The notes under the pieces: generated by a model | Seen by the model: the letters and a program-made list of their open reading frames with translations, nothing else | Databases searched by the model: none | What the model was told of the DNA's origin: nothing | Sequence record: MZ417521 | Source of the DNA: Escherichia phage 132 | DNA length: 64,000 nucleotides | Strand: one strand, 5' to 3' | Translations under genes and position numbers: made by a program | Shown here: piece after piece, positions 39,454 through 62,958 of the stretch | Layout of the letters: each line of letters starts with the position of its first letter | Position numbering within the stretch: the stretch's first letter is position 1

Positions 39454-39924
39454 TTAATCATGTTTCCACACCCCATCAGTATTTGACCAAAGCCGCTGAT
39501 TATCTGATCCTCGCCACAGCTTTTTAGTCGGAAGATTTTTCTTATACTTCCCATCAATAATAACATCAACATATTTAAGCATTTCTAGTTGTTTAATATC
39601 TTCAAACTTATATCCTGTCCACAACCAAATGCTTTTATTGGGATAAAGATTTTTTACTGTTTGAACGATGCAATGAATAACATCTCGGTTATCAGGATAG
39701 AGAGGGTCACCTCCGGTTATAGTCAATCCTTCTATATAATCATTATTCAAACATTCAATCAATTGTTCTAGTGTTTCACCAGTGAATGGAATACCATTTC
39801 TAGCATTCCATGTTGATTTATTATAACACCCTTCACATTTATGCAAACAACCTGTAACGAAAAGAACGACCCTGCATCCAGGACCATTAACAAAGCAGCA
39901 CGGGTATATTCTGTCATAATTCAT
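39454..39924 (-). CDS. nrdG: anaerobic ribonucleotide reductase activating protein NrdG (radical SAM)
   Basis: CxxxCxxC cluster motif (CLHKCEGC); start set to ATG 39922-39924; position next to nrdD. Confidence 0.8.
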   Translation of the reverse strand: MNYDRIYPCCFVNGPGCRVVLFVTGCLHKCEGCYNKSTWNARNGIPFTGETLEQLIECLNNDYIEGLTITGGDPLYPDNRDVIHCIVQTVKNLYPNKSIWLWTGYKFEDIKQLEMLKYVDVIIDGKYKKNLPTKKLWRGSDNQRLWSNTDGVWKHD

Positions 39925-40751
39925 AATAATATCCAATTTTTCCAAGCTTCATCAGTAGAATTACAGCGTTTTAGTATAAGATGTCTAGAAACTTTTATGG
40001 CATTTGAGCACTTTTTAATTGAATCATATTTAATACCGTCAACTGAAACGGTTTTGCTAGTTGGAGAAATTTTTCCATACATTGGATTTTTTGAACCAAC
40101 TTGAAGTCCTTTTAAAGCTTTTGAAAGCTTTTGTCTAGATTCCAATGACATGGGAGAATTCTTTTTACCTTCAATAATTCGCTTGCGATGAAGTTCGCGT
40201 TCTTCTTCACTCAAAGAATTGTAATATTTTTTAACACCGTTTGATATAGATAATTTATCTTTCTCAGACCGCTCTCCAGCTAATTTACTTCTAACATCTT
40301 TTCGCTTCATAGCTATGCTTACGGCTTTATTTAAATTTGCTTGATGCTCTGGCGTACGTTTATATTTCTTTAAAGCACGTGAAATAGCTATTTTAGTTTC
40401 TTCTGTTCTCTTTTTACCTTTATTTGCTAAACTATTTTTGTGGCGATGTTCAAGTGTCTGTTCATAAGCAGTTCCACCTTTTCCACCGGGTTTAATATTA
40501 TATGTATTTTCTTTTAGACAATACTCTTCGGTTACAAGTTCAGCTTCTTTATCATACATTTGTTTTTCATTATCAAAAACATGTAAAATTTCTTTATTAA
40601 AATTTTTTCTACCATATTTTAATAAAGCGGCACGAATCAATGTTCCTGATCCCATATAACCGTCATTTATGTTATCGGTGCTATGCGCACCGATATATTC
40701 CTTTGAATTAATTATATTTGTTATTTTATAAATTATATAATACCTATGCAT
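39921..40751 (-). CDS. free-standing GIY-YIG homing endonuclease (seg-like), 276 aa
   Basis: N-terminal GIY-YIG motif (YIIYKITN...EYIGAHS); basic C-terminal repeats typical of NUMOD-type DNA-binding tails; wedged between nrdG and nrdD with overlaps on both sides. Confidence 0.75.
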   Translation of the reverse strand: MHRYYIIYKITNIINSKEYIGAHSTDNINDGYMGSGTLIRAALLKYGRKNFNKEILHVFDNEKQMYDKEAELVTEEYCLKENTYNIKPGGKGGTAYEQTLEHRHKNSLANKGKKRTEETKIAISRALKKYKRTPEHQANLNKAVSIAMKRKDVRSKLAGERSEKDKLSISNGVKKYYNSLSEEERELHRKRIIEGKKNSPMSLESRQKLSKALKGLQVGSKNPMYGKISPTSKTVSVDGIKYDSIKKCSNAIKVSRHLILKRCNSTDEAWKNWILL

Positions 40752-42561
40752 GTTTTACTCGTTTTACCATTTCTTTCATTTTACCTAAATTCCATGGAAC
40801 AACGCTAGGAGTTCCAAGATATCCGCATGTTCTTCTTATGGTGTTCATCTTTTTAGGATCAGTTTCTCCACAAATAGAACAAACAAATCCGTTTTCAGTA
40901 GGAGTCATTTCATGGGTACTTCCGCATGTAAAACATTTATCTACTGGCATATTAACACCAAAATAATCTAAATGTTGTGCAGCATAATCCCATACAGCCT
41001 CAAGACCCTTTAGGTTATTTTTCATATCAGGAAGTTCAACATAAGAAATGTGACCACCTGTCGCAATGAAATGATATGGGGCTTCGCGAGAAATCTTTTC
41101 AAATGGAGTAATATTTTCTTCTACTGAAACGTGGAAACTGTTAGTGTACCAGCCTTTATCGGTAACATCTTTTACACTTCCATATTTTTCGGTATCAAGT
41201 TTACAGAAGCGATAGCACAGGTTTTCAGCAGGAGTAGAATACAAACTAAAAGCAAAACCAGTTCTTTCAGTCCATTGTTTAAGATGAGTATTCATTTTAG
41301 TTAAAATTTCTTGTCCAATATCACGACCAACAAGAATATTCAATTCGTGAATACCAATGTATCCTAGGGACACTGAACTTCTACCGTTTTTAAATAACTC
41401 AATTATGTCATCGTCAGGTTTAAGACGAACCCCGAATGCACCTTCTTGGTAAAGAATAGGAGCAACAGTCGCTTTAACTCCTTTTAAGGAACTAATTCTA
41501 CACATCAATACTTCAAAACATAAATCCATTCGTTCATTGAACAATTCAGTAAATTTCTGTTCATTGAACTGTGTTCCAATATAAGAATCTAACGCAATAC
41601 GAGGAAGATTCAGTGTTACAACACCAAGATTATTACGTCCATCAAGAATTTCATTACCAGTCGAATCTTTCCATACGCCCAAGAAACTACGGCAACCCAT
41701 TGGAGAAACAGGAATAGATGAACCTGTGATAGCTTTATTGTTCTTAGCCGAAATGATGTCAGGATACATTCTTTTGCTTGCACACTCTAGAGCAAGCTGC
41801 TTAATATCATAGTTCGGATCGTCTTTATAAAGATTAACACCTTCTTCAACGAACATAACAAGCTTAGGGAAAATAGGAGTTATCCCATCACGACCGAGAC
41901 CTTTAATGCGATTTTTCAGAATTGCTTTCTGAATCATTCGTTCAGTCCAGTCAGTTCCCGTACCAAATGTAATTGTTACAAAAGGCGTTTGTCCGTTTGA
42001 ACTAAAGAGAGTATTTACTTCATATTCATAAGCTTGGAACGCATCGTATACGTCTTTTTCTGTTTTAGACTGGGCGTAATTCAACGCGTCAGCGATTTGC
42101 CATTTTTCTGCGTCCTCAATATGTTTTGCATAGGTGCGTTTAACATAAGGAGAAAGGACTTTATCTACATTCGCAAAAGTCGTTCCACCATATTGATGGG
42201 AAGCAACCTGTGCAGTAATTTGTGCCATAATTGCAGTAGCAACGCCAATTGATTTAGGAGTTTCAATCTGTGCATTACCGAGCTTAAATCCGTTCTCAAG
42301 CATTCCTTTTAAATCTACTAAACAGCAATTAGTAAATGGAAGAGCAGGGGAATAATCAATATCGTGGAAATGGATAATTCCGCTTTCATGCGCTTTCATA
42401 ATAAAAGACGGGACCATATTTTTGGCAATGTGTTTAGACACAATACCAGCCATAAGGTCCCGTTGAGTTGGAAAAACACGAGAATCTTTATTAGCATTCT
42501 CGTTTAAAAGGTCTTTATTAGTTTTATGAATTAATCCTTCAATTTCTTTTTCAATTGTCAT
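40744..42561 (-). CDS. nrdD: anaerobic ribonucleotide reductase NrdD (glycyl radical enzyme), 605 aa, intronless
   Basis: C-terminal glycyl radical motif RRTCGYLG and zinc ribbon (CFTCGS...CSICG); T4 NrdD length as one ORF. Confidence 0.9.
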   Translation of the reverse strand: MTIEKEIEGLIHKTNKDLLNENANKDSRVFPTQRDLMAGIVSKHIAKNMVPSFIMKAHESGIIHFHDIDYSPALPFTNCCLVDLKGMLENGFKLGNAQIETPKSIGVATAIMAQITAQVASHQYGGTTFANVDKVLSPYVKRTYAKHIEDAEKWQIADALNYAQSKTEKDVYDAFQAYEYEVNTLFSSNGQTPFVTITFGTGTDWTERMIQKAILKNRIKGLGRDGITPIFPKLVMFVEEGVNLYKDDPNYDIKQLALECASKRMYPDIISAKNNKAITGSSIPVSPMGCRSFLGVWKDSTGNEILDGRNNLGVVTLNLPRIALDSYIGTQFNEQKFTELFNERMDLCFEVLMCRISSLKGVKATVAPILYQEGAFGVRLKPDDDIIELFKNGRSSVSLGYIGIHELNILVGRDIGQEILTKMNTHLKQWTERTGFAFSLYSTPAENLCYRFCKLDTEKYGSVKDVTDKGWYTNSFHVSVEENITPFEKISREAPYHFIATGGHISYVELPDMKNNLKGLEAVWDYAAQHLDYFGVNMPVDKCFTCGSTHEMTPTENGFVCSICGETDPKKMNTIRRTCGYLGTPSVVPWNLGKMKEMVKRVKHA

Positions 42562-58522: not shown

Positions 58523-58866
58523 CTAGTACTCAATCCTCGATTATAAGAATCTACCAAACGGTCAACCATTGAATGACAAGCGGCTTTATCTTTCTCCTCC
58601 GCAACTGAACATTCTAAGGTATTCCACTTTTTAGCATATCGTTTTAATAATGTATCGTTTTTGTATCTGCTTGATTTATCTCTTTCTCCGTCTTTATATG
58701 CATATATTAATTTCTGTGCAAATTCAGCTTGGCATGCTTTATTTTTCCCACAATAATCTGCCGCAGTGCGGTTTACATATTCTCTAATTTCAGTATATGA
58801 TGTATCTGCTGACGCAGAAGCAGAAAATGAAATTAATCCTATACATAAAACCAAAATTTTAGTCAT
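58519..58866 (-). CDS. secreted cysteine-containing protein, 115 aa (vs position)
   Basis: cleavable signal peptide (MTKILVLCIGLISFSASASA); four Cys in mature part. Confidence 0.5.
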   Translation of the reverse strand: MTKILVLCIGLISFSASASADTSYTEIREYVNRTAADYCGKNKACQAEFAQKLIYAYKDGERDKSSRYKNDTLLKRYAKKWNTLECSVAEEKDKAACHSMVDRLVDSYNRGLSTR

Positions 58867-59404
58867 TTACTATTTCCAAAAGTTTATTATTTTTAAGGTA
58901 ATTAGCCTTTTCTAGGACTTCAGAAGCATATTTAGAACCTGCTTTAACATTCCATCCCGAATTATAAGAGGATATTGCTTTTCTTATATCGCCCTTATGT
59001 ATATTTAACCAATAAGAAAGTTCAATGTACGCCCAGGAAGCTGAATTGGACCGTTTATTCAACATTCTTTTTATTTCAGCATCAGTCATATTATAACCAA
59101 GTTCCTTAACTCTTGCTCGCATAGTAGGCAAATAATTTTGGAACATTCCATAAGCGTGATGCTTTGGTTTAGATTTTAAATTAACTCCGCCAGAGCTTTC
59201 TTGCCATAAAATGGCTGCCATTATATGACCCAATCCACTCTTGTGGATATTTTTGTGTGTTTTATATTTTCCATCCTTAGAAAATTGTTCCCCGAATTGA
59301 TACGCGTAACGCATGTTATCGAGTTGGACATTACTGAAAGTATGCTCGGAGCTATGTGCCATCATTGAAATGGCCAATAGACCAGCGAGTAGTGCTTTTC
59401 TCAT
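58859..59404 (-). CDS. secreted soluble lytic transglycosylase-like protein, 181 aa
   Basis: signal peptide; SLT-family motifs (ILWQESSGG, GMFQ, YNSG). Confidence 0.65.
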   Translation of the reverse strand: MRKALLAGLLAISMMAHSSEHTFSNVQLDNMRYAYQFGEQFSKDGKYKTHKNIHKSGLGHIMAAILWQESSGGVNLKSKPKHHAYGMFQNYLPTMRARVKELGYNMTDAEIKRMLNKRSNSASWAYIELSYWLNIHKGDIRKAISSYNSGWNVKAGSKYASEVLEKANYLKNNKLLEIVND

Positions 59405-59932: not shown

Positions 59933-60211
59933 TTATTCTTTAAATCTAATCAATTTATTCATAGACTTTGAAACTTCTGCACGAACCTCATGCAGATTTT
60001 TGAGCTGTTCAAGACGCTGCGTATAGTAAGCAATTTCATCTTCTTCGAGACAGTCCTGTGAATCTTCTTTAAGATAACGTGCATAGTCCTGAAAAGCGTT
60101 ACGAACTACTTCCTGGAAATCATCAAGACTTTGAATTTTCTTAGGAGCAGCAGATACACGACGAGGGGCAGTATAATACTCATAACCAAACCCTGCGCTT
60201 AATTGAGCCAT
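59933..60211 (-). CDS. small hypothetical protein, about 92 aa
   Basis: track start is GTG; ATG at 60209-60211 preceded by GAGGA. Confidence 0.4.
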
Positions 60212-60477
60212 TAGTATTTTTCCTCTGGTTGGAACACTGCACGACAAGCCCACATACTGGCTTCTTTGAGTTTCGCTTTAGCAATAGTTAACTGATCGAG
60301 GCTTTCAGCATAATTCTTCGCGAATTCACAGTCTTCGCAATTATCTAGTGCTTCCCAAAATTCATCATATAAAGCGTCAAAGATAAGTCCTAAACGAACT
60401 TCAGCGTCTTTAATAGCATTTACTTTACCGATTTTTTCGTCGGTATGTGGCTTATAACCTTTAATATCTTCAATCAT
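60211..60477 (-). CDS. small acidic protein, about 88 aa, at the relative position of T4 vs.4
   Basis: ATG at 60475-60477 with GAGGAAG 6 nt upstream; sequence not recognised. Confidence 0.4.
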
Positions 60478-60691
60478 ATTTGACTTCCTCACCAGTGCAT
60501 AAATCATATTCAACTAAACGAATAGGTTCATGAATGCCATATCCTTGAACAGAAATTTCTGTAGTAGGATAAATTCCATTAATATCACCCATGTTCCATG
60601 CTTCGTTAAATTGCTGTTCGCCTGAATTACTAAACCATTCGGCGAAAGCATTTAGCACATCTTCAGAACCTTCAATAATTATCTTTGCCAT
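60470..60691 (-). CDS. small acidic hypothetical protein, 73 aa
   Basis: ATG ORF. Confidence 0.45.
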   Translation of the reverse strand: MAKIIIEGSEDVLNAFAEWFSNSGEQQFNEAWNMGDINGIYPTTEISVQGYGIHEPIRLVEYDLCTGEEVKYD

Positions 60692-61053
60692 TACAAACTC
60701 TCGGTAAAGGTACGAGCGATAACGTCGCGCTGCTGTTCCGGAGTCAGAGAGTTAAAGCGAACTGCATAACCGGATACACGGATGGTCAGCTGCGGATATT
60801 TTTCCGGATGCTTAACTGCATCTTCCAGAGTTTCACGACGCAGAACGTTAACGTTCAGGTGTTGACCACCTTCAATTTTAACTGTAGGCTGTGGCTCAAT
60901 TTCAATTTCACGGGCATGCAAACCATAGAAAATTTCTGGGTCTACAAAAGAGTCCTCTTTAAAGGTTTTAGAAACGATAATTCGTGCTTGAATACCATCT
61001 TCAAAATAAATAGTACCTTTATGTGTGCCTTCAAGAATTTGATATGCTTTCAT
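60691..61053 (-). CDS. autonomous glycyl radical cofactor (GrcA/YfiD-like), 120 aa
   Basis: C-terminal glycyl radical motif [25 protein letters not shown], as at the C-terminus of pyruvate formate-lyase and E. coli GrcA. Confidence 0.7.
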
Positions 61054-61060
61054 ATAAACC

Positions 61061-61441
61061 TCAATTAGAAAATAAATTTATCCAAGATTGTTCTTTAATT
61101 AAAAACGGCTCAGAATCATATGCCATTAAACTTTGGGTAATTAATCCTTTAAAAGGTCCATCAATAAATTCCATGGTAAAATATGGAATTTTATTCATTA
61201 ATCTTGCATTAGGAGCAGTGCACAAAACTCTGCATCCTTTGAATACGCCTTTTTGTAATTTGTATTGCTTAGGATAAAATTCGCTCAAGACGTTGTTATT
61301 TGCCAAAATTTCAAAATGATTCACCAATTTATTTTTAATAGTTTTTGGCGAAAAATAAAGATATTCGAAAAGTTGCGTATCTGTCATCATTGCATCCCAA
61401 TTACGAAAAACTGTGGACGAGTAATACCACCAATGCAACAT
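61061..61441 (-). CDS. hypothetical protein, up to 126 aa (start uncertain)
   Basis: ATG ORF overlapping the upstream gene by 55 nt; alternative ATG at 61388-61390. Confidence 0.4.
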
Positions 61442-62038: not shown

Positions 62039-62341
62039 TTATTTACCTTTAATTACTTTAGCTGCTTCGATAGCCGCTTGCTGAAGGTCATCCATAGACA
62101 TACCGAATTTAGAAGCAAAGTTATCAATTTTCTTTTCGACAGCATTCAAAGGCTTGGCCTGTTTACCTTCATTAGCGCCAGGAAGAGCGAGAATACGCTC
62201 TTTGTCAATATAAAGGCTTACAAGTTTCTTACGGTCTTTATCGGACAAATCGTGAAATGAATGAGCCTTTTTATTTATAGCGGCTTCTAATTTACCTGCA
62301 CTCACTCGCGCTTCAGTAATAAATTCTTGATATGTTTTCAT
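62039..62341 (-). CDS. ipII: internal protein II with capsid-targeting sequence, 100 aa
   Basis: N-terminus MKTYQEFITEA matches the T4 internal-protein capsid-targeting sequence; T4 IPII length. Confidence 0.65.
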   Translation of the reverse strand: MKTYQEFITEARVSAGKLEAAINKKAHSFHDLSDKDRKKLVSLYIDKERILALPGANEGKQAKPLNAVEKKIDNFASKFGMSMDDLQQAAIEAAKVIKGK

Positions 62342-62379: not shown

Positions 62380-62958
62380 TTAATTACCACGGGCTGCATT
62401 AGCAACGGCGTAAGCGTACTGAACATTAGCGTCTTTAAACGTACCTTTAGAGGTGTCTATTTCTGCCTTAAAGCCGCCTTTAGCCATAACATCGGCAAAT
62501 TCTTTACGGAAAGCCATTGCATCAAGACCTTTCCATGATGATTTATGCTTGGCAAATTCAAGACCAGCGTAGTTGACAGCTTTAGCCAATTTATTATCAA
62601 TGACCCATTTACCAGCTTTAGGCACAAACACCGGGCCTTTCTGTTTAGAGAATAGTTTTAAATTCCAGCGACGAAGGTCACCGTCGGCTTTAACAAAAGC
62701 TGCGTCTAAGTTACTAGCAACAACATCTTCAATATGAGCAAATTTAAGCCCATCAACTTCAATATTTAGATCGTTACGCCAGCGTAGTCCTTCCCAAGCG
62801 AAGGCTTTAAAATCAGAAGCTTTTGTGGCTAGATATCGTTCAAGTGGAGCAGTTTTAGGATCAAAGCCGTTTCCGCCACGATAATTCCACTCGTCCTTAT
62901 TAATGCCTTGGACTTTTCCTGCAAAGGCCTCGGCGATAAATTCTTTATATGTTTTCAT
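62380..62958 (-). CDS. ipIII: internal protein III with capsid-targeting sequence, 192 aa
   Basis: N-terminus MKTYKEFIAEA; size close to T4 IPIII. Confidence 0.65.
   Translation of the reverse strand: MKTYKEFIAEAFAGKVQGINKDEWNYRGGNGFDPKTAPLERYLATKASDFKAFAWEGLRWRNDLNIEVDGLKFAHIEDVVASNLDAAFVKADGDLRRWNLKLFSKQKGPVFVPKAGKWVIDNKLAKAVNYAGLEFAKHKSSWKGLDAMAFRKEFADVMAKGGFKAEIDTSKGTFKDANVQYAYAVANAARGN

Follow-up and report, generated by a model that had tools for sequence, protein, structure and literature searches.

The open reading frame under study is, with a probability of about 0.9, the Tequatrovirus gene vs.6, which encodes a phage copy of GrcA (YfiD), i.e., a spare radical domain for the oxygen-cleaved pyruvate formate-lyase (PFL) of the host. 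It lies in a stretch of 64,000 nucleotides from Escherichia phage 132 (sequence record MZ417521), which was analyzed at its full length and is called the window in the following. The feature and its spare-part function are already known, the latter from in vitro work on the T4 protein published in 2001, and both are already annotated; finding Vs.6 again thus adds nothing new on its function.

The preliminary description of this DNA had reported an ORF of 120 codons, which is indeed present on the minus strand and starts with ATG (Table 1). It had also let the protein end in a string of 25 residues containing the glycyl-radical motif; the string was found as quoted, although it is followed by four further residues, TESL. 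The RVSGY motif begins at residue 92 and its glycine is residue 95. The overlap of the vs.6 stop with the vs.5 start suggests that the two genes may be translationally coupled within a run of minus-strand genes. A scan for promoters and terminators around vs.6 resulted in 9 promoter-like sites compared to 7.5 +/- 3.2 expected, which gives no usable signal. An ORF of 127 aa on the opposite strand (60685-61068, plus) was considered as well and taken as a by-product of the strongly supported vs.6 on the minus strand.

Table 1. Coordinates of vs.6, its sub-genic elements and the nrdD and nrdG genes within the window.
Feature	Position	Strand	Description and basis
vs.6 CDS	60691-61053	minus	ATG start, 120 aa and TAA stop; ORF list
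C-terminal glycyl-radical domain	60694-60873	minus	residues 61-120, equal to E. coli GrcA residues 68-127 in amino acids
GGT codon of Gly95, predicted radical site in RVSGY	60769-60771	minus	HMMER alignment register
Inferred host-derived conversion tract	60704-60875	minus	172 nt, gene nt 179-350; three-way DNA alignment
Phage-specific N-terminal half	60877-61053	minus	residues 1-59; distant homology to the GrcA N-terminal region
GAGG Shine-Dalgarno	61059-61062	minus	5 nt upstream of the vs.6 ATG, overlaps the vs.7 TGA stop; read from the sequence
TAATG overlap, vs.6 stop/vs.5 start	60689-60693	minus	ORF coordinates and sequence
NrdD	40744-42561	minus	605 aa; Pfam NRDD 9.6e-171
NrdG	39454-39945	minus	Fer4_12 4.2e-48, Radical_SAM

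The assignment to vs.6 is based on sequence identity and on gene order. The protein shares 119 of its 120 residues with T4 Vs.6 (UniProt P13316, GRCA_BPT4), the only exchange being R73 here and H73 in T4, and it falls into the same 90% cluster as P13316. It is identical over 120/120 residues to a protein of phage Kha5h, which RefSeq names 'autonomous glycyl radical cofactor GrcA', and 187 public contigs carry exactly this sequence, several of them under the name "autonomous glycyl radical cofactor". Moreover, it matches phrog_1209 over its full length (1.2e-62; residues 1-120 on profile positions 1-121 of 121). The order of the genes in the window, vs.1, regB, vs.3, vs.4, vs.5, vs.6, vs.7 and vs.8 on the minus strand, is that of T4 and Kha5h, and vs.6 occupies the conserved slot in the regB-denV interval of T-even genomes. 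The 2-kb stretch surrounding it matches 811 phage records, mostly Tequatrovirus and relatives infecting Escherichia/Shigella, the best of them at 96.5%.

Some of the neighboring ORFs carry features of their own. Two genes downstream of vs.6, in the slot of T4 vs.4, an ORF of 100 aa (60211-60513, minus) contains the Pfam Acb2/Tad1 hairpin domain PF24729 (3.6e-18), which we take to be the cyclic-nucleotide sponge family countering CBASS/Thoeris. Two adjacent ORFs (62039-62341 and 62380-62958, both minus; 100 and 192 aa) have the N-terminus MKTY(Q/K)EFI(T/A)EA in common, which to our understanding resembles the capsid-targeting sequence of the T4 internal proteins (IPII/IPIII). The Vs.1 homologue (58859-59404, minus; 181 aa) begins with a signal-peptide-like sequence, MRKALLAGLLAISMMAHS, and for vs.1 a marginal match to SLT lytic transglycosylases was described (Nolan et al. 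2006, PMC1524935).

With its 120 residues (~14 kDa) Vs.6 is a small stand-alone protein that consists essentially of a PFL-type glycyl-radical domain. RVSGYAV is the peptide recognised by the PFL-activating enzyme PFL-AE, and the RVSGYAV loop of Vs.6 is identical to that of GrcA. The Pfam model Gly_radical matches residues 61-101 with E=2.8e-18 and 66.8 bits at a gathering score of 22.2, i.e., far beyond chance. Among the NCBIfam models GrcA (TIGR04365) fits best, with E=3.7e-45 over profile positions 25-126 of 126, followed by GrcA3, GrcA2 and PFL. The score of 153.3 bits stays below the cutoff of 170 bits for the TIGR04365 equivalog, a threshold set for curating the bacterial equivalog rather than a functional criterion, and the shortfall is due to the divergent N-terminal 59 residues. 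RefSeq and UniProt name the protein GrcA despite this score; judged by its sequence, it is most accurately filed as a 'phage Vs.6-type GrcA' and not as the bacterial equivalog.

Careful alignment places the radical glycine in register with that of both host proteins. In the HMMER alignments residues 58-120 pair with PFL 697-759, by which Gly95 is aligned to G734, and the alignment to GrcA 28-127, with residue 120 opposite GrcA 127, brings Gly95 to G102. The conserved glycine of RVSGY is thus present. Over residues 61-120 there is no difference to E. coli GrcA (BLASTP, HMMER), and in the N-terminal half 14 of the ~39 residues aligned to GrcA 28-66 are identical. The best PDB chain is E. coli GrcA (6owr, E=8.6e-42), followed by PFL (1h16, E=5.2e-26), so that a solved structure exists for a C-terminal domain identical to the one of Vs.6. 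Domain, glycine register and the near-identity to T4 Vs.6 together bear out the preliminary description in its claim of a GrcA/YfiD-type protein.

Functional data exist for the T4 protein under another name. Y06I_BPT4 is presumably the earlier UniProt entry name of this protein. From its size, the UniProt name and the fact that Vs.6 is the sole GrcA homologue found in T4, we infer that the Y06I of Wagner et al. 2001 is T4 Vs.6; the two names are stated together in no paper found in the searchable literature. According to PMC8683613, PFL-AE installs the radical on Y06I, which then reactivates PFL cleaved by O2 (Wagner et al. 2001, BBRC 285:456), and Y06I and E. coli YfiD are the only two validated spare parts, both forming a complex with the cleaved enzyme, cPFL (Andorfer et al., JBC 2021). 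By analogy to this published and near-identical protein, the Vs.6 encoded here would be expected to be activated by PFL-AE and to rescue cPFL.

For the E. coli proteins the underlying chemistry was described in the literature. Attack of O2 on the G734 radical cuts PflB between S733 and G734, and the G102 radical of GrcA is transferred to C419 of PflB. The Kd of YfiD for cleaved PFL is ~14 uM, PFL-AE efficiently installs the radical on YfiD only if cPFL is present, and the resulting complex has wild-type-like kinetics (PMC8683613). Residues 1-60 of YfiD are disordered and dispensable for catalysis; they increase radical installation ~4-fold and are required for measurable binding (PMC8683613). 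A model for the phage protein can be formulated along these lines. Oxygen would hit active host PflB and break the chain at the radical glycine G734, leaving cPFL as a large fragment without radical loop. Vs.6 would then act as a free-standing replacement of the C-terminal domain, with its N-terminal half probably aiding the docking on cPFL, a role extrapolated from E. coli YfiD. The host enzyme PflA (PFL-AE, a radical SAM enzyme) would abstract a hydrogen from Gly95, and the Gly95 radical would be passed on to Cys419 of PflB, by which pyruvate could again be turned into acetyl-CoA plus formate without resynthesis of the 85-kDa subunit. The phage would presumably gain a maintained fermentative flux of carbon and ATP (acetyl-CoA, formate) during infections under microaerobic or anaerobic conditions with fluctuating oxygen, as in the gut, and Vs.6 would replace the supply from host grcA once host transcription is turned off. 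The divergence of the N-terminal half could mean that Vs.6 is regulated differently from host GrcA. The searchable literature yielded neither an in vivo phenotype of vs.6 mutants nor expression data.

A different target was conceivable, as the phage encodes a glycyl-radical system of its own. Both nrdD and nrdG lie where the preliminary description had placed them, with Pfam matches to NRDD and Fer4_12. Vs.6 might accordingly be radicalised by NrdG and repair or support oxygen-damaged NrdD instead of host PFL, and a role in nucleotide metabolism was speculated on by Nolan et al. 2006 (PMC1524935). Moreover, in two unrelated lineages the vs.6 homologue is found inside the anaerobic ribonucleotide reductase cluster: the order is nrdD-nrdG-vs.6-nrdC-nrdH in Aeromonas phage PX29 (homologue L011 2501-2878) and nrdD-g131-homologue-g133-g134-nrdG in the Yersinia jumbo phage fHe-Yen9-04 (homologue L007 1495-1857). 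Nevertheless, we consider this reading very unlikely. The radical domain of Vs.6 is that of GrcA and closely related to PFL 697-759, and a phmmer search of Vs.6 against all ORFs of the window at E<=10 returned only the protein itself and not NrdD. The motif of NrdD is RRTCGYLG as compared to RVSGYAV in Vs.6, which does not have an NrdD-like radical domain. In the window 18 kb separate vs.6, which sits amid unrelated small early genes, from nrdD/nrdG. The homologues of PX29 and of the Yersinia phage retain PFL-type tails, RVSGYA(V/I)RF...RTFT, and co-regulation in an 'anaerobic module' therefore fits their clustering at least as well as a direct interaction. In T5-like phages and in Aeromonas phage Riv-10 the homologue is found among tRNA genes. 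Finally, PFL-AE and cPFL are the reported partners of the T4 protein (PMC8683613). The tie between Vs.6 and phage NrdD/NrdG to which the preliminary description had hinted therefore reduces to co-occurrence in one genome.

The evidence thus points to host PFL rather than some other target. Of the earlier idea that the phage carries its own repair module, the spare part and host PFL as its target stand, whereas the module is not self-contained: the activase would be the PFL-AE of the host, and the window contains no PFL-type activase, NrdG being its only glycyl-radical activase-like ORF. In this region, an ORF of 276 aa between nrdD and nrdG (39921-40751, minus), which overlaps both at its ends, resembles a free-standing homing endonuclease: it has a NUMOD3 motif and a DNA-binding domain of the I-TevI type, and it weakly matches SegE GIY-YIG. 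Over its 605 codons nrdD is uninterrupted.

The same interaction partners could in principle also be used against the host enzyme. In such a scenario Vs.6 would be a decoy or regulator, which competes via its N-terminal half for host PflA or for cleaved/inactive PflB and thereby redirects or damps fermentation. The N-terminal half is the only part in which Vs.6 differs from host GrcA, the corresponding half of YfiD governs cPFL binding and the efficiency of radical installation (PMC8683613), and in phages it is under purifying selection and therefore has some phage-specific function. A pure competitor would have no need of the radical glycine and the entire catalytic loop, yet both are kept identical to GrcA. 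Furthermore, PMC8683613 reports that the T4 protein reconstitutes active enzyme in vitro, and no evidence of inhibition was found. For these reasons we regard a decoy function as highly improbable and retain the function as spare part.

Homologues of vs.6 are widespread. By tblastn they were found in 1588 phage records, comprising T4-like Straboviridae from numerous genera as well as T5-like Demerecviridae, jumbo phages and Aeromonas phages. Nolan et al. 2006 (PMC1524935) count vs.6 among the ORFs that are conserved between divergent genomes of T4-like phages; Gly_radical matched in 6/6 genomes compared. Between phage genera, codons 1-59 have dN/dS ratios (Nei-Gojobori) of 0.11-0.26 and codons 60-120 ratios of <=0.09. 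The low values in both halves show that both are under purifying selection and that the gene is therefore no passenger. That vs.6 might be a neutral passenger, i.e., host grcA DNA taken up by the recombination machinery of the phage, was suggested by its 3' part, in which a stretch of 172 nt has 100% identity to E. coli grcA and a host-like GC content, so that at least part of the gene is very recent host DNA. Besides the dN/dS of 0.11-0.26, the 5' half is old and phage-adapted in composition (GC3 0.20), the homologues are intact and full-length in several phage families, and the reading frame, the Shine-Dalgarno sequence and the coupling to vs.5 are all preserved. Frequent frameshifts or stops, or a dN/dS near 1, were not seen in the alleles examined. 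A mere passenger is thus barely credible.

The DNA of vs.6 is a mosaic. In every one of 5426 complete E. coli genomes, grcA is matched at 97.8% by gene nt 179-363, and the part upstream remains unmatched. In a three-way alignment with grcA, 172 consecutive bases are identical (gene nt 179-350). Over this tract the identity is 100% to the commonest E. coli grcA allele and at least 99% to grcA in 5156 E. coli records, whereas the 5' 178 nt of vs.6 have 46.6% identity to grcA with 21 gap columns. The composition shifts at the tract boundary: the GC content rises from ~0.30 in the flanks to 0.50 in the tract, and GC3 rises from 0.20 (5' half) to 0.44 (tract), compared to 0.42 in both halves of E. 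coli grcA. Within the 25 kb from 39001 to 64000, no other part matches any E. coli genome at megablast level. The four synonymous differences to E. coli grcA are all located in the last four codons (60694-60705), which read ACC GAG AGT TTG here and ACT GAA AGC CTG in the host. These codons are directly upstream of the overlapping vs.5 start, and selection on the ribosome-binding region of vs.5 may have shaped them.

The divergence at synonymous sites is in line with a young age of the tract. Between tract and E. coli dS is 0.05-0.17, compared to 0.39 between E. coli and Citrobacter and 0.98 between E. coli and Salmonella for the same codons. Similarly, dS between Tequatrovirus and Mosigvirus is 0.50 in the 5' half and 0.09-0.17 in the tract (Fisher p=0.003-0.04). 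The tract with the same 5' boundary was found in 4/4 Tequatrovirus and 4/4 Mosigvirus alleles examined, with 0-4 private interior changes each. Composition and phylogenetic nesting point to a transfer from host to phage, and the data as a whole suggest that host DNA recently converted the phage gene in Tequatrovirus and Mosigvirus. A tentative extension of this would be concerted evolution, in which the tract is repeatedly overwritten from host grcA during infection and the N-terminal half evolves independently, giving phage-specific docking or activation; we consider it possible, though rather doubtful, as the mosaic fits recurrent conversion from the host as well as a single recent event that was spread by recombination between phages.

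Two further approaches were pursued and rejected. The tract boundaries seemed informative on independent events due to longer BLAST alignments for some Mosigviruses, yet the boundary is at nt 178/179 in all eight alleles, and sharing it is uninformative because the homology ends there anyway. E. coli polymorphisms that match private differences of the phages gave too weak a signal, as the most diverged Mosigvirus tract gains only one match against the best E. coli alleles (98.3% compared to 97.7%). Moreover, the tracking of hosts by phage genera is no general rule. A query with Salmonella grcA retrieved no phage above 95% and only 2 phage records at 90-95%, and with Klebsiella grcA there was again no phage above 95%, the best band being 90-95% with 17 records. 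If 47 alleles from phages and viral contigs are compared to 81 host genes, a set that does not include the grcA genes of K. pneumoniae and K. oxytoca themselves, only Tequatrovirus- and Mosigvirus-like alleles reach at least 97.7%, most others lie at 75-85% and two near 91%. Krischvirus, which infects E. coli, does not have the tract (0.80).

As a separate observation, Jiaodavirus-type alleles of Klebsiella phages (L004 1501-1863, L097 224-586, L175 1-162) have a GC3 of 0.58-0.62 in the 3' half compared to 0.24 in the 5' half. The 3' half is up to 91% identical to Enterobacteriaceae grcA in the same host set lacking true K. pneumoniae/K. oxytoca grcA, which hints at an older or separate host-derived tract.

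As a summary, Vs.6 is a textbook-grade case of a lytic phage equipped with a repair part for host metabolism. The sub-genic tract identical to the host is the one modestly new element, and it makes a small evolutionary point with a clean signal: the mosaic reveals a very recent sub-genic exchange between the chromosome of the host and a virulent phage that degrades host DNA. A prior description of the mosaic was not found in the searchable literature, a scope that excludes Wagner 2001 and the T4 genome review, and we do not claim that it is unreported.

Compared to known systems, Vs.6 of T4 is closest. It has the same length, within the regB-denV interval it likewise lies between vs.5 and vs.7, and it shows the same mosaic DNA with a 3' tract identical to E. 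coli; the genes differ at six nt over 363 nt. At residue 73 the protein here has the arginine of E. coli GrcA instead of the histidine of T4 and is thereby more GrcA-like than the T4 protein. E. coli GrcA/YfiD (6owr) is also a stand-alone protein of ~14 kDa, which agrees with Vs.6 in all of its last 60 residues, RVSGYAV and the radical glycine among them, and its partners reported in PMC8683613, PFL-AE and cPFL, are those of the T4 protein. Vs.6 is 7 residues shorter, its N-terminal half has ~36% identity to GrcA over the alignable 39 residues, and its first ~20 residues are unalignable; furthermore, vs.6 belongs to a run of small early-region genes of a lytic phage, whereas grcA in E. coli lies beside ung/eamB.

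GrcA2 and GrcA3 (NCBIfam NF008341, NF038360; ~78-80 aa) have the glycyl-radical domain in common with Vs.6, which scores 93-107 bits over residues 60-120 and thereby stays below their cutoffs of 145 and 158 bits; unlike Vs.6, they do not have an N-terminal half. With the C-terminal domain of PflB (697-759) Vs.6 shares 52 of 63 residues by manual count and the register of the glycine, G734, and the DNA of this part is ~80% identical to pflB. In contrast to PflB, Vs.6 does not have the barrel of ~700 residues carrying the catalytic Cys418/Cys419 and is therefore no enzyme by itself.
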